DNA from: a virus
Lineage: Duplodnaviria > Heunggongvirae > Uroviricota > Caudoviricetes
Reading direction: 5' to 3' (one strand)
IMG/VR virus record: IMGVR_UViG_2547132281_000006
Coordinates: 1-25,188 of that record
DNA: 25,188 bases
Part shown: positions 1,047 through 20,655 of the stretch, one piece after another
Layout: each line of letters starts with the position of its first letter
How positions within the stretch are numbered: position 1 is the first letter of the stretch
Program-made: the position numbers and the translations under genes
Notes under the pieces: generated by a model
The model's input: the letters and a program-made list of their open reading frames with translations, nothing else
Told to the model about the DNA's origin: nothing
The model's database searches: none

Positions 1047-1631
1047 TTACTCCCTGACAGGGTTCGTAGGCCACTCAATATCAGGTGCAGTTGATGTATC
1101 AACACGGTTCAGCAACACCCGATACTTTTTCCAGGCTTCCAGCAATGAGGTTTCTTCCTCCGTTGCAATTTCCAGATCTGCAGCATCCTGAAGCGGCGCA
1201 ATATGCTCACTGGCTACCTGCATCAGGTTGTTTTTTGTTTCTTCCGCCTCCCGGATCCGGAACAGTTTTTCTGCTTCTGCATCTTTCACCCAGGTTGTGC
1301 CGTTCCACTTCTGAAACTCCCCTTCCGGCGATAACCAGGTAACATTTTCCGGTAATAAGCCGAGTTCAGAAATAAATAACGCGTCGCCGGAAGCTACGTC
1401 ATAAACCGTTTTACCCCGATGATCTTCAACGAGATGCCACGATGCCTCATCACTGTTGAAAACAGCCACAAAGCCAGCCGGAATATCTGGCGGTGCAATA
1501 TCGGTACTGTTTGCTGGCAGACCTGTATGAGGCGGAATATATGCGTCACCTTCACCAATAAATTCATTAGTTCCGGCCAGCAGATTATAAATTTTTATGG
1601 TCCGTGCTTGTTCACTCATTCTGAATGCCAT
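1047..1631 (-). CDS. tfa: Tail fibre assembly protein (lambda Tfa family)
   Basis: 194-aa ORF with typical Tfa N-terminus ([36 protein letters not shown]) and conserved C-terminal block. Confidence 0.85.
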
Positions 1632-11047: not shown

Positions 11048-11357
11048 TTATTCCCGGTAGTTTTCCTCTGTAGGTTATCAACACATCCTGCGCCTCTAAA
11101 ATTACGGGGCGCTTTTCCGGCGACTGCTCATCCCCTTCACATAACCCGGCAGCAACATCCAGGAAGACCTGTCTGATGCTCCTTCTGGCTGCTGCCTCAT
11201 AAAACTCCAGCGCGGCACCTTCAACACGGTCCAGCGAGATGTCCAGGTCAAAAATTTCACCGTCAAAGCGTTTTTTGTCCCGTAACGCTAAAGTTACCGT
11301 AACTTTATTCTCAAAATTGCGGATCCCTTTCACAATCAGTTTATAGTTTTGAGTCAT
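11013..11357 (-). CDS. YdfR-like protein located between holin and endolysin
   Basis: 114 aa; start 4 nt after the holin stop; same position as ydfR in Qin as recalled; C-terminal ~11 aa overlap the plus-strand ORF. Confidence 0.55.
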   Translation of the reverse strand: MTQNYKLIVKGIRNFENKVTVTLALRDKKRFDGEIFDLDISLDRVEGAALEFYEAAARRSIRQVFLDVAAGLCEGDEQSPEKRPVILEAQDVLITYRGKLPGIITGSLKSPPKW

Positions 11358-11361
11358 TGAA

Positions 11362-11577
11362 TTACTCTCCCCGTGCAGCCTTACGACGGTCCTCTCTGAT
11401 TTTGAAATACAGGTTAGTCAGATATGTCAGCAGCCCAAACAGCAGACTCCCCAGCACGCCTATTGCCGCCCACTGAGACGGGGAAACCCTGTCCAGCAAC
11501 TGCAGGAACCAGTAGCCCGTTCCCACCGCTGACGTGGTGTATGACACACCTGTTGTGATTTTTTCCATCTGGTACAT
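11362..11577 (-). CDS. Holin, phage 21 S-like (pinholin class), dual-start motif MYQM
   Basis: From M27 of the longest ORF: [51 protein letters not shown] is near-identical to recalled S21; two in-frame starts 3 codons apart (11577 and 11568). Confidence 0.85.
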
Positions 11578-11727
11578 ACCCCGTCTCCCGTTATCCGGAA
11601 GCTGACAACAATAAAAAAAGCCACCAGTTAAGTACTGATGGCTCTGATAACTCATGCAGGCATCTCAGACGACCCACTGACACTACCGGTGAGTTTAACG
11701 ATACCTTCCATTTGGCTGGCTCACTTT

Positions 11728-13584
11728 TTATGATGATGCCGGTGCATTTATCTCCAGCACCAGACTTTCTATCTCAACGCCATACGCTGCATTTTTGGTA
11801 ATATCCGTCAGCGTCAGCGCATTCAGCCCCAGTGTCAGACTGTCTTTTATGACCTGGAATGCCGGGCCAGCCACTCCATTCAGTTTCGGAGTAACCGTGG
11901 CACTGCCGGCGGTGAACACCAGCTCCAGCGTCTGCCAGTCGTTACTGTAATTCCCGAACTCGCCCAACTTTGTGTTTCCTGCTTTCTTGTGATGCATCAG
12001 ATTCAGTTTGCCGTCTGTGGTCTGGGTGAAGAACGACATCAGGAACGGGTTACCAGTCCCGGTCATCGCCACGACGTCAGGTAACGCTACATCGGTATAC
12101 AGATAAATTCCCAGACCGAACTGGTTGTTGGTCAGTGCGCCTGACAGTCGAAACTTACAGCTCAGTCTGCCACCCCGTGTCAGCAGGGAGACTGCGTCAT
12201 CCACCGGATGCATCAGGGACCAGGTTTTATTGCTCTGCTTGGTAACCTTAAACACACCATCTTCCAGCGCAACACTGCCGCCGGTGATGGTCCAGCCCTG
12301 CGCAGCAGCCTCTCCGGCTGTCGGCAGCAGGGAGACTGTACGAACGGATGTGTCACCATCAGACGGCCCCGATGGAGTGTCGCCGCCGGGCGAGGGTTTG
12401 ATTTCCGGTGCCTTACCACTAATGAAGGCTAAGGTGCGACCGGCTACGTTCAGAATAGCAGTTGCCATACGATCGGGAATAATGCCACGACGCGCCCATG
12501 AGCTGAAATGCGTCGGGCGATTTGATGATACCCAATTACCATTACTACGGGATTGCGCGCCGTAATAACCTGCATCAGCAATATCCGGGTCTTCTGCCGG
12601 TAAGTTGGTGGGCGTGTTGTTGCCGTTACCGTCGGTCATGAACGGCACAAAGAAAACGTTGTCGCTCTCCCTGTTTTTGTACGCGCCGTAGACGGAGTCA
12701 TACTGTGTGCCGTATGTGTTTTTCCAGTAATACGTCGTGTCGCCACAAATCCACGGTACAACTGCAGCACTGCCGCCATGGCACTGCGCGTTAAATCCGG
12801 AAAGGTCAGTACGGAACTGCTTCAGCATGGCCGTGAACAGGTCCGGTTGCTGTGCGTAGGTGGCAGCGCTCATGTCAAATTCGCCCTGCATCCAGCACAC
12901 CGCCAGCAACACATTTTTCGGGTTCCTCTGTAATGCCGCTTTGGTGCGTGCGATCAGGTCCTGATATAACGGTTTACCCACACCCCAGCGTGCCGAATCC
13001 TGGCTGGCCCCCGTGTCCGCACTGAATGTCCCCTCCGCGCCCTGGGTGAATGCCGAACCACCACGACAGCATGGTACCAGCAGGATCCCCGCGTTATTCG
13101 GGATATACGGAAGCAGTTTTTTGGCAATATGTAAGCCCTGGCCGACACAGCCGTACTGCCCTTTGCTCAGGTCTGCCTTCGGATGATTCAGTGCGCTCAT
13201 ATCCTGAACATCATGCAGGCAGTGGTCTGCCGGAATGATGTCGTTAAATGCGCATGCTTTACCACCGGGAGTCACTGTGTTGCGACGGGCCAGTTGCTTA
13301 ATGCGTGGGTGGGGCGCATCGTAAGAATCCGGAAGCGGAAGCCCTTCACCGTAAGCCATGGCATTGGATTGCCCGGCCAGTACGATGACGTAGTACCACT
13401 CCGGCTCAGTTGCACCACTGACGACCACATCACCTTCTGCTGCAATCGCCTGCATCAGGGTATAAGGGGTTATGGCCACCGGACTACCAAACGGCTGCCA
13501 GCCCTCTTTCAGTTTATGTGTCAGCTTTTCCGCAAGATCTGACGGCGACGCCGCCCTGACAACATCATAGTGTTTAAATGCCAT
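11728..13584 (-). CDS. Prophage sialate O-acetylesterase (NanS-p type: N-terminal DUF1737-like domain plus SASA/SGNH esterase)
   Basis: Start at ATG 13584 (MAFKHYDVV, GGTGGA SD); LAGQSNAMAYGEG esterase motif; ~620 aa; sits between the stx-equivalent locus and the holin as in Stx phages. Confidence 0.8.
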   Translation of the reverse strand: MAFKHYDVVRAASPSDLAEKLTHKLKEGWQPFGSPVAITPYTLMQAIAAEGDVVVSGATEPEWYYVIVLAGQSNAMAYGEGLPLPDSYDAPHPRIKQLARRNTVTPGGKACAFNDIIPADHCLHDVQDMSALNHPKADLSKGQYGCVGQGLHIAKKLLPYIPNNAGILLVPCCRGGSAFTQGAEGTFSADTGASQDSARWGVGKPLYQDLIARTKAALQRNPKNVLLAVCWMQGEFDMSAATYAQQPDLFTAMLKQFRTDLSGFNAQCHGGSAAVVPWICGDTTYYWKNTYGTQYDSVYGAYKNRESDNVFFVPFMTDGNGNNTPTNLPAEDPDIADAGYYGAQSRSNGNWVSSNRPTHFSSWARRGIIPDRMATAILNVAGRTLAFISGKAPEIKPSPGGDTPSGPSDGDTSVRTVSLLPTAGEAAAQGWTITGGSVALEDGVFKVTKQSNKTWSLMHPVDDAVSLLTRGGRLSCKFRLSGALTNNQFGLGIYLYTDVALPDVVAMTGTGNPFLMSFFTQTTDGKLNLMHHKKAGNTKLGEFGNYSNDWQTLELVFTAGSATVTPKLNGVAGPAFQVIKDSLTLGLNALTLTDITKNAAYGVEIESLVLEINAPASS

Positions 13585-13844
13585 GGTTCTTTCCACCATC
13601 TGAAAAATGATTCTTTAAAATACCTGACATGTAATACAGAAAAAACACAAAACCATACCTTAAATAAAAACCTCATCATCAAGCAGATATGCATGGATAA
13701 ACTACAAGACGAGATATAAACCACCCTGCATTTAAATAAACAATAAACAACATCAGAAAAATAATTCTGCTCTATGGTTTACAATCAAAAATATCATTTA
13801 TACTTTTCAGAACATCACCAGCAAGGCATAAACAAGGAAACTAA

Positions 13845-14180
13845 ATGAAGTGGATTGTGATTGATACAGTTATCCAGCCATCATGCGGAATATCTTTTTC
13901 AGTCATATGGAGTAAAATAAAATTAATAATCTGGTATCAATCGGATGCTTTCTTACCTCCTGAAAGTATATTTACACTGACTCACACAGGCATCATGCTC
14001 AATAACAAAGTGCTACCTGTAACCATTTACAACGTAGTACCATTCAATAAAACATTCTGGAATTTAATCAAAAACAGCCAGGAATGCCCTACAAATACAG
14101 ATAACGTATTGAATGAATGCTTTAATAACCGTTGCACTCTGCAAATATGTCCTTATGGGCTAAAACAACAAAGTCCATAA
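13845..14180 (+). CDS. Hypothetical 111-aa protein in AT-rich stx-equivalent locus (uncertain)
   Basis: AAGGA SD 8 nt upstream; AT-rich; four Cys in the C-terminal 25 aa; antisense to the late transcript. Confidence 0.3.
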
Positions 14181-14214
14181 GGAGTTTACTCACATCTGAC
14201 AAAATCAATATAAA

Positions 14215-14236
14215 CAGCCCCTCCGGAGAGGGGCTG
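14215..14236 (-). terminator. GC-rich hairpin downstream of the tRNA cluster
   Basis: 9-bp stem CAGCCCCTC / GAGGGGCTG with 4-nt loop; on the minus strand followed by TTTATATTGATTTTG. Confidence 0.4.
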
Positions 14237-14471
14237 GAGAGTGGCGCTATGTGCCATTGCATGGTGCCGGGTGCCTCCCGGTGAATTCAGTACCAGCACC
14301 TGAATCCGCGATTATCCCATATACCTACTCGCTGATTGCCCCTCCGCACAGGGGGATTCACCATGCCAGTTTCTTTTAACAAACTCCCCGCAAACCAGAC
14401 AACAGTCAACCGCCTAAATTGTGAGACATTTAAAAAAAAGGCCCACAAAAGCGAGCCAGGGAAAATAAGTG

Positions 14472-14548
14472 TGGCGCGTTGTACTGGATTCGAACCAGTG
14501 ACCGATTGCTTAGAAGGCAATTGCTCTGTCCGGCTGAGCTAACAACGC
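14472..14548 (-). tRNA. tRNA-Arg (anticodon TCT)
   Basis: Reverse complement folds as a cloverleaf: acceptor GCGTTGT/ACAACGC, D-arm GCTC..GAGC, anticodon loop CTTCTAA, T-arm ACTGG-TTCGAAT-CCAGT, encoded CCA. Confidence 0.85.
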
Positions 14549-14561
14549 ATGATGCAGATAA

Positions 14562-14638
14562 TGGACCGCCATCGGGGACTTGAACCCCGCGCAACCAGCT
14601 TCGAAGGCTGGCGCTCTTTCCTGATGAGCTAATGGCGG
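14562..14638 (-). tRNA. tRNA-Arg (anticodon TCG)
   Basis: Acceptor CCGCCAT/ATGGCGG, D-arm GCTC..GAGC, anticodon stem CCAGC/GCTGG with loop CTTCGAA, T-arm CGGGG-TTCAAGT-CCCCG, encoded CCA. Confidence 0.8.
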
Positions 14639-14645
14639 TATGTGA

Positions 14646-14721
14646 TGGTGGCCCTTGCTGGATTTGAACCAGCGACCTGGCGATTATGAGTCGCTCGCTC
14701 TCACCACTGAGCTAAAGGGCC
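14646..14721 (-). tRNA. tRNA with CAT anticodon (Ile2/lysidine type, ileX/ileZ-like, or Met)
   Basis: Sequence GGCCCTTTAGCTCAGTGGTGAGAGCGAGCGACTCATAATCGCCAGGTCGCTGGTTCAAATCCAGCAAGGGCCACCA closely resembles recalled E. coli ileX. Confidence 0.8.
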
Positions 14722-14770
14722 GGGAGCAGAATAATAATGGTGCGTAATTAATTCTGCAATCTCATCCGTT

Positions 14771-15820
14771 TCAAACGATTAAATCCTGAACTTCCCTGAC
14801 TGTCTGCTCAAAACGTCCGGTCTCCAGTTCAACGCCAATCGCACGACGCCCGAGCGCCAGTGCAGCTTTTACCGTTGAACCTGAGCCCATAAAAAAATCT
14901 GCAACCAGGTCTCCCGGACGACTGCTTGCGCTGATTATCTGCTGCAGCATTTCTGCCGGTTTTTCGCACGGATGTTTCCCGGGATAGAACTGCACCGGTT
15001 TATGTGTCCACACATCCGTGTACGGCACCTGCGCCGTCACACCAAAATACCGCCGCAGATGCTTATATTCACTCTGCAGCTCCACATACTGCCGGTTCAG
15101 TGACGTATACGTATCCACCAGCTGGTGGTGGGGCTTTTCCAGTTCACCGCGCTGATGTTTCTCTTCTGCCACCCGGGCAAACAGCGACTGTAATTTCAGA
15201 TAATCGCTTTCGTTCGGTAGCTGCCACTGACTGGCACTGAACCAGTGCGACACCATGTTTTTCTTTCCTGTGGCATCTGCAATCTGTTTTGCCGTTATCC
15301 CCAGGGCCGCGCGCGCATCACGAAAGTAAGAAATCAGCGGGGCCATCACATGCTGTTTCAGTGCACTGCCCTTCGCCGCATACCCGGCATCTTTCGGACG
15401 ATACGGCCCCTGATAATGTTCCGCGAACAGAATGCGCTCTGTGGCGGGGAAATACGCCCGCAGGCTTTCCTTGTTGCATCCGTTCCAGCGTCCGGACGGC
15501 TTCGCCCAGATAATATGGTTCAGCACACTGAAGCGTTCACGCATCATGATTTCGATATCAGATGCCAGGCGATGACCACAGAACAGGTAAAGACTTCCGG
15601 CAGGTTTCAGCACCCGCCAGAACTGCGCCAGACACTGGTCCAGCCACTTCAGGTAATCATCGTCGCCCTTCCACTGGTTATCCCAGCCCTCAGGCTTCAC
15701 TTTAAAGTACGGCGGGTCCGTAACTATCAGGTCAACAGAATTTTCGGGTAACGACCGGATAAATTCCAGGCAGTCGGCGTTGATTAACTCACAACTGGAT
15801 ATTTTTACAGTATTAAGCAT
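14771..15820 (-). CDS. Orphan DNA methyltransferase, beta-class (N6-adenine or N4-cytosine)
   Basis: 349 aa; DPPY motif near the N-terminus (LIVTDPPYF) and FxGxG SAM motif near the C-terminus (DFFMGSGST); no adjacent restriction endonuclease candidate. Confidence 0.8.
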   Translation of the reverse strand: MLNTVKISSCELINADCLEFIRSLPENSVDLIVTDPPYFKVKPEGWDNQWKGDDDYLKWLDQCLAQFWRVLKPAGSLYLFCGHRLASDIEIMMRERFSVLNHIIWAKPSGRWNGCNKESLRAYFPATERILFAEHYQGPYRPKDAGYAAKGSALKQHVMAPLISYFRDARAALGITAKQIADATGKKNMVSHWFSASQWQLPNESDYLKLQSLFARVAEEKHQRGELEKPHHQLVDTYTSLNRQYVELQSEYKHLRRYFGVTAQVPYTDVWTHKPVQFYPGKHPCEKPAEMLQQIISASSRPGDLVADFFMGSGSTVKAALALGRRAIGVELETGRFEQTVREVQDLIV

Positions 15821-15950
15821 GGATCATTAAGCCTGTCTCTGATAGGCTCATTCTGCTTTTGCGCAAAGCAGTGGGCCTGAGGTTTGCTTGTGAACCCAAC
15901 GCATGAGCAGATGGCTGGTGGGTGCCCCTAACACCCACCAGCCGCCCATT

Positions 15951-15984
15951 TACCACAAATAAAAAAGCCTTCACTGCGGAAGGC
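15951..15984 (-). terminator. Intrinsic terminator at the end of the small ORF
   Basis: Stem GCCTTC / GAAGGC (loop CGCAGT) followed by TTTTTTATTT on the minus strand. Confidence 0.5.
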
Positions 15985-16168
15985 GTCTGTAACAACCGAA
16001 CTGATAGTCTGCCAGACCCGCCATAACCAGCTGGGTCAGTATTAACTGGCAGCGTTCGCGTGAAAGGTAAGTATTCTGCGCTATCTCCCCGACTGTCGCC
16101 GGTTCGGTAACGCTTAATTCATTAAACACCACTCTGGCGGTTTCTGTCATATCCTGCTGTTTTAGCAT
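15971..16168 (-). CDS. Hypothetical 65-aa protein, first ORF of the late transcript
   Basis: ATG at 16168 with AAGGGA SD; the longer 94-aa version starts with GTG and is less likely. Confidence 0.4.
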   Translation of the reverse strand: MLKQQDMTETARVVFNELSVTEPATVGEIAQNTYLSRERCQLILTQLVMAGLADYQFGCYRRLPQ

Positions 16169-16288
16169 GTCTTTTTCCCTTTTCCGGTTAACGTGACACA
16201 CCAATAACTCTTGTCGAAAAAGCCAGCAAGCTGAAAGACAGGTATTCACCGCCACCAGCGCGTTTACTGTACTGACGCGATTTCAGTC

Positions 16289-16313
16289 ATAAAAAACCCG
16301 CCAGGCGGCGGGG
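16289..16313 (-). terminator. tR'-like intrinsic terminator downstream of the late promoter
   Basis: Minus strand: CCCGCC-GCCT-GGCGGG followed by TTTTTTATG, about 50 nt downstream of the predicted pR' -10. Confidence 0.55.
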
Positions 16314-16361
16314 TGTAAAAAATCTTCTAACGTCAGGCATAAAACGCCCATCGTTAGAGCA

Positions 16362-16389
16362 AATTTACCACAGATTCGGGAAAAATCAA
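16362..16389 (-). promoter_or_regulatory. pR'-like late promoter (-35 TTGATT, 16-bp spacer, -10 TAAATT)
   Basis: Minus-strand sequence GGTAAATTTGCTCTAACGATGGGCG resembles the recalled lambda pR' start region; located immediately after the Q stop. Confidence 0.55.
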
Positions 16390-16394
16390 CAACA

Positions 16395-17216
16395 CTATCG
16401 CGTTACCCTCTTTAACTGCCGCTCCGCCCATGCCTCTTCAATGTCAAACCGAACCACCAACGTATCGTAAAAGCGTTTCACTGATTTTTTCCACGTATCA
16501 AGCGTGATAGCACTCGTCACTTTGCATATGGCATTAAATGCCTCCGTTGATGGCAGCCTTTCACAGCCACGACCACCACAACGCTGGCAGTCTCTGATAA
16601 CAGGCATACCACGTTTTACCGACTCTTCACGATGAATGGCGACACCACGCCCACGGCAATCCTTACAGGCGGTGGAAACCTCACCCTTTCCGCCACACTC
16701 CGGACAGGCAACTTTTACCACCTCCCTGACTTTTTTCCATTCTTCCCAGTAAGACGAATACACACCTTTCGTACACTTTGCCCATACCGGCGGCTTACCA
16801 TCCGGATACTGGACCTTGTTTGTAAAAACCTCGCTTTCAATAAATTTTTTTCCGTGACAGCAGGGGCACTGTTTTTTGCTCGCCGCGCTACGGGCATAAT
16901 CTTCAAACGCATACGAAGCCATAATACGCATCACTGCCGGTTTTATTTCTGCCGGGAGTTTTCTTAACGCCGCCACGCGATCACACCGACTGAGTGCATA
17001 TTCTGTCAGCAATTCTGTTGCCCGCTCTCTGTCATTCATACTAATGCCCATTTTACCAAGGAACGCAGAAAACCCCATCTCAGCCCGATTCTGTGTCATG
17101 CCCTGCGCGGCCATCACATCAGTGATACTCAGCGCATCTTTCGACGTTGAGGCCGATGCATCAGTCAGGCCGGGGGATTTTGGGGAGTAGTATTTCGGTA
17201 AATCTTCCAGTTTCAT
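16395..17216 (-). CDS. Q: Late-gene antiterminator Q (lambda-type, enlarged zinc-binding region)
   Basis: 273 aa; N-terminus (YYSPKSP...TDVMAAQGM), middle (ASYAFEDYARSAA) and C-terminus (RFYDTLVV...KRVTR) parallel recalled lambda Q; four CxxC motifs; start overlaps the rusA stop (ATGA). Confidence 0.8.
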   Translation of the reverse strand: MKLEDLPKYYSPKSPGLTDASASTSKDALSITDVMAAQGMTQNRAEMGFSAFLGKMGISMNDRERATELLTEYALSRCDRVAALRKLPAEIKPAVMRIMASYAFEDYARSAASKKQCPCCHGKKFIESEVFTNKVQYPDGKPPVWAKCTKGVYSSYWEEWKKVREVVKVACPECGGKGEVSTACKDCRGRGVAIHREESVKRGMPVIRDCQRCGGRGCERLPSTEAFNAICKVTSAITLDTWKKSVKRFYDTLVVRFDIEEAWAERQLKRVTR

Positions 17217-17587
17217 TTTTTGACCTGCCCTTCAAGCATTATGGGGTAAATCTTCACCCCCAGACGTCCACCAGATACTGGCTGACCACGAACGATATTG
17301 ATTTCATCAAACTGCTCATCGTCCATTAACACTCCCGCATGCGTCAGCGCATCCAGCGGTGCTTTCAGGATATTGTCCAGGTCGCGACGACGCTTATCCG
17401 GTGGCTCTGCAATCACCTTTATCGCCAGCCTTCCGGACAGGCTTAATTTCAGCCGCTGCTGGCGAACAATAAGCGCCACTGCCCGGCGATAACGCTCCCC
17501 GGCTTTTGATACAAAATATGTGCTGCCACGGCGTCGCCAGTAAGTGTTCACCGTCGGCGGGTAAGGTAAAACCAAATCTATGAGCAT
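17213..17587 (-). CDS. rusA: Holliday junction resolvase RusA
   Basis: 124 aa; LPYPPTVNTYW N-terminus and DKRRRDLDNILKAPLDALTHAGVLMDDEQF catalytic block typical of RusA. Confidence 0.85.
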   Translation of the reverse strand: MLIDLVLPYPPTVNTYWRRRGSTYFVSKAGERYRRAVALIVRQQRLKLSLSGRLAIKVIAEPPDKRRRDLDNILKAPLDALTHAGVLMDDEQFDEINIVRGQPVSGGRLGVKIYPIMLEGQVKK

Positions 17588-17831
17588 CAGTCACCTCTTT
17601 TAACAGAGCCTGCATTTTTTCAACAGCATCAGGGGTGTCTTTATCCAGCCAACGGAAAATTTTCTGGGTATTACGGGCCAGGGCTTCCGGATGGCTGTCG
17701 TCATACAGTTCCGGGAACGTCATTCCCAGCTCGAAATACGCTTTGGTAATTTTCGCAGCCGGTACTTTTTCGCCGTCCGGATGCGCCCAGGCATTCATTG
17801 CCATGCGGATGTGTTCATGCTTGATTTTCAT
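17394..17831 (-). CDS. Hypothetical protein downstream of the Cro-like gene (position analogous to ydaT of Rac); 3' end overlaps rusA
   Basis: 145-aa ORF; first ~100 aa look protein-like; last ~45 aa overlap rusA in another frame (possible lost stop or frameshift). Confidence 0.4.
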   Translation of the reverse strand: MKIKHEHIRMAMNAWAHPDGEKVPAAKITKAYFELGMTFPELYDDSHPEALARNTQKIFRWLDKDTPDAVEKMQALLKEVTDAHRFGFTLPADGEHLLATPWQHIFCIKSRGALSPGSGAYCSPAAAEIKPVRKAGDKGDCRATG

Positions 17832-20602: not shown

Positions 20603-20655
20603 TTTCTGGTGACTTTTGGCGGTATCAGTTTTACTCCGTGACTGCTCTGCCGCCC
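20603..20655 (+). ncRNA. dicF: DicF small RNA (ftsZ-targeting sRNA of Qin-type prophages)
   Basis: TTTCTGGTGACTTTTGGCGGTATCAGTTTTACTCCGTGACTGCTCTGCCGCCC followed by TTTTT matches recalled K-12 DicF with ~2 substitutions; lies immediately upstream of the dicB-like gene. Confidence 0.8.

Follow-up and report, generated by a model that had tools for sequence, protein, structure and literature searches.

What does a lambdoid prophage of the Stx-phage type carry at its moron site when the Shiga toxin genes are missing? The question is raised by a 25,188-nt stretch of DNA from a tailed phage (hereafter the window), in which a cluster of tRNA genes and a nanS-p-type esterase gene are separated by a short, AT-rich gap. 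A sequence-only reading of this stretch had proposed that the locus lacks stx, that the phage is an stx-free relative of Stx-converting phages, and that a small open reading frame (ORF) antisense to the late genes fills the slot in which stx would otherwise reside. By combining homology searches, covariance-model scans and an alignment of the locus with those of known Stx phages and other prophages, we find that the first two proposals hold and that the third has to be revised: the ORF is, with high confidence, iraL, a known lysogenic-conversion gene, and it lies beside the stx insertion point, not in it.

The gap measures 887 bp (13585-14471), as the last tRNA ends at 14472 and nanS-p starts at 13584 (the start being taken from the annotation of a homologous locus); the bracketing genes are thus those named in the sequence-only reading, which had estimated about 870 bp. 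Late transcription of the phage runs along the minus strand of the window. The late region has the order typical of lambdoid phages of the Stx type (Q, Ile/Arg/Arg tRNAs, STnc100, nanS-p, and holin/lysis genes) and is collinear with that of phage 933W, in agreement with the proposed relationship to Stx phages; the assignments of tRNA-Ile, holin and lysozyme come from PGAP annotation of a homologous locus in which the late region (window 11354-17602) is 99% identical. Read in the orientation of the phage, the gap contains the tRNA terminator, a closed stx site, the gene for an STnc100-family sRNA with its terminator, and the convergent gene iraL, followed by nanS-p (Table 1). Elsewhere in the prophage, Rfam models identified a DicF sRNA (20604-20655, plus strand; 75.8 bits) and an IS009 RNA (1090-1288, minus strand; 225.7 bits).

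Table 1. Features of the tRNA-nanS-p region and its surroundings; positions are those of the window, except for the CFT073 region, which is given in the coordinates of its own locus.
Feature	Position	Strand	Basis or remark
Q-type antiterminator	17216-16395	-	Pfam Antiterm, PF03589
DNA methylase	15820-14771	-	Pfam scan
Phage tRNA, CAT anticodon	14646-14721	-	Met by ARAGORN; tRNA-Ile by PGAP for an identical gene; ileZ type of Stx phages
Phage tRNA-Arg (TCG)	14562-14638	-	ARAGORN
Phage tRNA-Arg (TCT), last of the tRNA cluster	14472-14548	-	ARAGORN
Terminator-like hairpin (14457-14440) and T8 run, directly after the last tRNA	14432-14457	-	Intrinsic type
Closed stx site	14428-14431		Flanks of the 933W stx2 cassette abut
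STnc100-family sRNA (Rfam RF02076), in the sense of late transcription	14206-14395	-	Rfam covariance model
GC hairpin of 9 pairs, terminator stem of STnc100	14215-14236	-	Followed on the minus strand by TTTATATTGATTTTG
iraL cassette, 630 bp, GC 0.33	13586-14215	+	Without homology to Stx phages
iraL promoter (sigma-70): -35 TTTACA 13778-13783, 15-nt spacer, -10 TATACT 13799-13804	13778-13804	+	Hexamers identical to CFT073
iraL 5' UTR, transcription start at 13812	13812-13844	+	31/32 nt match to the 5'-RACE mRNA end of CFT073
iraL coding sequence, 111 aa, RssB anti-adaptor	13845-14180	+	100% identical to CFT073 IraL (WP_000871291.1)
Cys-tail region, IraL residues 81-107	14085-14165		
nanS-p-type esterase gene, first late gene past the gap	11728-13584	-	DUF1737, SASA and DUF6645 (Pfam)
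CFT073 iraL-prophage region compared	L003 21701-24247		

The ORF described earlier is present and intact, and it is AT-rich as stated (GC of 0.35 in the ORF and 0.33 in the cassette around it, against 0.50 for the whole window). Its product matches IraL of the uropathogenic E. coli strain CFT073 at every position (111/111), and both records carry the same RefSeq accession, WP_000871291.1, which in CFT073 denotes IraL (c1429, formerly ycgW; PMC12890032). A Pfam scan of the ORF matched no family; its placement came from NCBIfam, where family NF007393 ("anti-adapter protein IraM") is hit at 162 bits (cutoff 121), with residues 1-110 covering profile positions 1-113 of 114. RefSeq uses the same label, "anti-adapter protein IraM", for the ORF in all of the best 30 matching E. 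coli genomes. Identity to the IraM protein of K-12 is 62% (66/107), the published figure for IraL and IraM being 58.9% (PMC4045071), and the crystallised PmrD-like core of IraM (PDB 8TWD, chain A) matches IraL residues 1-78 (E = 9e-32). At the predicted RssB interface, judged by alignment with the contact residues reported for IraM (clusters I-III), 11 of 14 positions are identical in IraL, and the changes are T13S, H63N and I64V.

The region upstream of iraL can be compared directly with published data for CFT073. The mRNA start reported from 5'-RACE, ACATCACCAGCAAGGCATAAACAAGGAAACCA, aligns at 13812-13843 with 31 of 32 nucleotides identical, and TATACT sits 7 nt upstream of this mapped start. 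The promoter suspected by the sequence-only reading, TTTACA...TATACT, lies just upstream of this start; it had been placed slightly too far downstream, near 13787-13815; the AAGGA Shine-Dalgarno sequence was correctly recognized and is found at 13834-13838, 6 nt before the ATG. The spacer of this promoter, only 15 nt long, kept it out of the list produced by a consensus scan. Across promoter and 5' UTR there are three differences from CFT073, at 13784, 13811 (position -1) and 13842. On the plus strand downstream of iraL no canonical terminator was found, and the sole downstream hairpin is not followed by a T-run.

The agreement with CFT073 extends over the whole cassette, which in the phi-potB prophage of that strain is about 99% identical to that of the window, hexamers and transcript start included, and occupies the same position in the same orientation, from STnc100 to the nanS-p start and downstream of Q and three tRNAs. 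The two prophages differ around it: in CFT073, unlike in the window, Q is followed by an IS200C element, adjacent to an STnc490 RNA, ahead of the tRNAs; the stx site, closed in the window, holds an insert of about 620 bp with a DUF3927 ORF; and nanS-p, intact in the window, has been cut down to a DUF1737 fragment.

As the family is named after IraM, the gene could also be the functional equivalent of K-12 iraM, activated by PhoP/PhoQ under Mg2+ starvation and not of the constitutive log-phase type. Besides the shared family NF007393, this reading can call upon a direct repeat similar to a PhoP box, TGTTTAttgttTATTTA (minus strand, 13733-13749), which precedes the start site by 63-79 nt. We consider it improbable. 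Complete identity to IraL contrasts with 62% identity to IraM; no homology emerged when the sequences upstream of the two genes were aligned; IraL has been shown to be active in unstressed log phase (PMC4045071); and the repeat, which lies in an AT-rich stretch, is unique in the window at a limit of one mismatch, yet 36 of 100 shuffled sequences contain a match that good. Control by PhoP through this box was rejected accordingly: matches with at most one mismatch are at chance level, and those with at most two number 10 where 6.3 are expected. K-12 IraM (YcgW, b1160) remains a close relative of IraL, with which it shares the PmrD-like core, most RssB-contact residues and the C-terminal C-x10-C-x4-C-x4-C/CPYGL motif, but its gene stands in another context, beside the e14 attachment remnant. 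Published work likewise separates the two proteins: IraM responds to Mg2+ starvation via PhoP and IraL acts in log phase, and their interactions with RssB are somewhat different (PMC4045071; bioRxiv 10.1101/2023.01.07.523045). On these grounds we keep to the identification of the gene as iraL.

That the locus is stx-negative is borne out by blastn searches with stx2AB of 933W and stx1AB of a Stx1 phage, neither of which matched in the gap or elsewhere in the window, and by the place at which stx2 would be found. The window aligns with the 933W locus (L006) in two blocks: positions 14431-14872 correspond to L006 3412-2970 (the tRNAs and the terminator), and positions 14258-14428 correspond to L006 4926-4745, a sequence that starts 42 nt after stx2B. 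The 1.3-kb stx2AB cassette would therefore sit at 14428-14431, where its flanks abut in the window, and the hairpin directly after the last tRNA is the homologue of the 933W element annotated as "terminator upstream of the stx genes". The junctions of the 933W cassette (L006 3405-3420 and 4740-4760) have a similar motif on either side, ATCTGCG and ATCTGTG, and the window reads AATGTCTC at the closed site; these motifs may stem from the recombination event by which the cassette was moved.

A second gene in the gap, absent from the sequence-only reading, is that of the STnc100-family sRNA (14395-14206, minus strand), which scores 132.4 bits against a gathering threshold of 47, covers model positions 1-206 and ends in a terminator hairpin. 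The GC hairpin noted earlier at 14215-14236 is this terminator, as the T-rich tail follows it on the minus strand and there is no T-run on the plus strand; the hairpin with its nine pairs is thus real, but it belongs primarily to STnc100, and for iraL it is at best an imperfect stop. In 933W, 75 nt separate stx2B from the STnc100 homologue downstream of it, which overlaps with EcOnc27, an sRNA bound by Hfq (PMC12711010; PMC4104026). RefSeq has a partial "hypothetical protein" pseudogene, at the equivalent of 14251-14376 on the plus strand, in a locus that matches the window exactly throughout the gap; it lies antisense inside the sRNA gene and is probably an annotation artefact.

The stx and iraL modules occupy the same neighbourhood, downstream of Q and the tRNAs, yet they differ in both orientation and position: stxAB (in 933W and the Stx1 phage) runs in the direction of late transcription and lies between the tRNA terminator and STnc100, whereas iraL is antisense and lies on the opposite side of STnc100. 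The claim that the cargo fills the stx moron slot consequently fails. The boundaries of the iraL cassette point to what it replaces instead. It is bounded on the left by the start codon of nanS-p and on the right by the STnc100 hairpin; homology to 933W, to the Stx1 phage and to the stx-negative phage PPwrbA_EH2201 ends at 14216 and returns at 13585, and in the window the iraL cassette stands in place of an antisense anti-sRNA module of about 220 bp that these three carry. In 933W the order is stx2B, STnc100, AsxR on the opposite strand, and nanS-p, and many lambdoid prophages are known to have a convergent sRNA pair at their moron site (Tree et al. 2014, PMC4104026). Since the anti-sRNA module coexists with stx, iraL is an alternative to the anti-sRNA and not to stx. 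There are thus two variable slots: one for stx, bounded by the tRNA terminator and STnc100 and empty in the window, and an antisense one, bounded by STnc100 and nanS-p and occupied in the window by iraL. The earlier description of a different small cargo was correct in that a cargo gene antisense to the late genes, apparently self-contained, is present; it was not a cargo of no known identity, as the homology search returned iraL.

The anti-sRNA genes AsxR and AgvB resemble iraL in more than their place. They have the same slot and orientation, are convergent with an sRNA of the STnc100/EcOnc27 type and lie immediately upstream of nanS-p; they are expressed in the lysogen and, likewise, rewire a global regulator of the host. 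They differ in kind: their products are RNAs, about 51-60 nt long, which act as sponges for FnrS and GcvB, two sRNAs of the host, where iraL encodes a protein directed against RssB. No sequence homology was found between the iraL cassette and the AsxR/AgvB genes, the slot sequences of 933W and PPwrbA have no homology in the slot of the window, and an Rfam scan of 13500-14800 gave no match to an AsxR/AgvB-type sRNA at E <= 1. The module of about 220 bp in PPwrbA_EH2201 and the Stx1 phage (L005 and L007, 5777-5996 in both) has a GC hairpin and T-run of its own on the antisense strand; it matched no Rfam family at E <= 1, AsxR and AgvB included.

The C-terminal part of the protein had drawn attention for its cysteines, four of which were said to lie within the last 25 residues. 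Three do; the four (C81, C92, C97 and C102) span the last 31. All four, together with a CPYGL motif, recur without change in IraL, in the IraM proteins of K-12 and Shigella and in a Citrobacter homologue of 54% identity, as checked on seven loci from a search of genome contigs with an alignment of IraL and IraM, which did not recover Salmonella RssC. Published work nevertheless calls this tail flexible and less conserved, and it was truncated in the structure of IraM crystallised with RssB (8TWD); a metal-binding or redox role is conceivable. In E. coli ECGI0523 (L094 4001-4321) an iraM-like gene is broken by a frameshift or stop codons, with 52 aa still open.

Four cysteines in the C-terminal 31 residues and a location near the stx site might suggest another kind of moron product, such as a small Cys-rich secreted or toxin-like peptide in place of Shiga toxin. 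This is hardly credible: the N-terminus reads without features of a signal peptide, residues 1-78 correspond to the PmrD-like core of IraM, which is cytoplasmic, the known partner RssB is itself cytoplasmic, and iraL is not at the stx insertion point.

To place the locus among its relatives, we surveyed 80 IMG/VR loci whose NanS-p N-terminus (200-aa query) is at least 94% identical to that of the window. iraL is found at an identical offset from nanS-p in 44 of them, and an anti-sRNA-type module takes its place in about 26; stx1AB is present in a single locus (1/80), alongside an anti-sRNA-type module, and none of the 80 has stx and iraL together. Between the tRNAs and STnc100, nine of the 44 iraL loci are contiguous as in the window, about 22 have an insert of about 620 bp, and the rest are arranged otherwise. 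A second STnc100-like copy was seen upstream in 10 loci. All 44 copies of iraL are intact and encode four protein variants, and a transcript start has been mapped for the identical gene of CFT073; the ORF is thus neither absent nor non-coding in close relatives, nor is it silent in CFT073, and the combination that would have spoken against the sequence-only reading (absent or non-coding in relatives, and no expression) was not observed. The same evidence disposes of the notion that the ORF is a chance frame in a spacer where only the RNAs (tRNAs and sRNAs) are functional, which the AT-rich character of this sRNA-rich moron site and the lack of a Pfam match might invite, but which was already refuted by identity to an experimentally characterised protein (PMC4045071) and is scarcely worth entertaining given a score above the curated NCBIfam cutoff, a crystal structure for a homologue, 44/44 intact copies and a Citrobacter homologue that at 54% identity keeps both the frame and the Cys motif.

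In sequenced bacteria the region is common: of the 5426 E. coli genomes that are complete, 1427 (about 26%) have at least 80% of the 887 bp, and IraL is common in uropathogenic E. coli and Shigella. Among phages it is scarce. The iraL part is covered in four of the 107 matching records of a phage collection, none of the four being a Stx phage. As the region is present in about 26% of complete E. coli genomes but in only four out of 50,697 phage records on deposit, iraL prophages seem to be isolated as free phages only rarely.

The function of the gene has been worked out by others on the identical protein, and it is from that literature that RssB binding and RpoS stabilisation are taken, while identity, family, correspondence of promoter and start, and the anatomy of the locus come from the present comparison. 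In CFT073, deletion of iraL lowers the log-phase level of RpoS and halves its half-life (PMC4045071, Hryckowian et al. 2014); RpoS rises in K-12 when iraL is supplied together with 100 bp of native upstream DNA, and RssB co-purifies with IraL (both PMC4045071). IraL is increased in a fur mutant (PMC7157518) and after a shift to 37 degrees C (PMC12890032).

Transferred to the prophage studied here, these results would give the following picture. iraL would be transcribed from its own sigma-70 promoter, with a start at 13812, against the direction of the phage late operon; having its own promoter opposed to that operon, it should be expressible in the lysogen without phage induction, and expression in this particular strain is what its sequence would predict. 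The product would bind RssB, a response-regulator-like adaptor, and block the hand-over of RpoS, the general stress sigma factor, to the ClpXP protease, as experiments on the identical protein show. RpoS would then be stabilised even in exponential growth, and the stress resistance of the host would be raised. As iraL runs against the Q-dependent late transcript and converges with STnc100, its expression should be disturbed by induction, so that the gene would probably be silenced by antisense late transcription once the prophage is induced.

More speculatively, the interval from the STnc100 terminator to nanS-p might be an exchange slot for mutually exclusive, lysogen-expressed antisense modules (an AsxR/AgvB anti-sRNA or IraL) that rewire global regulation of the host, with iraL shut off by Q-dependent late transcription and with iraL and stx modules tending to exclude each other. 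We put this forward tentatively, as a proposal more likely to need revision than to stand as worded. In the searchable literature we found no paper that describes iraL in terms of an exchange slot or places it in the convergent-sRNA/stx moron region.

The gene iraL and the function of IraL were already known, and the finding is real but ordinary; the position of iraL in the convergent-sRNA moron site is a small addition and not a discovery, and beyond correct annotation it matters little. It does suggest a simple test, namely whether induction of the prophage silences iraL, and it offers a concrete picture of lambdoid prophages that swap cargo aimed at host regulators at fixed junctions.
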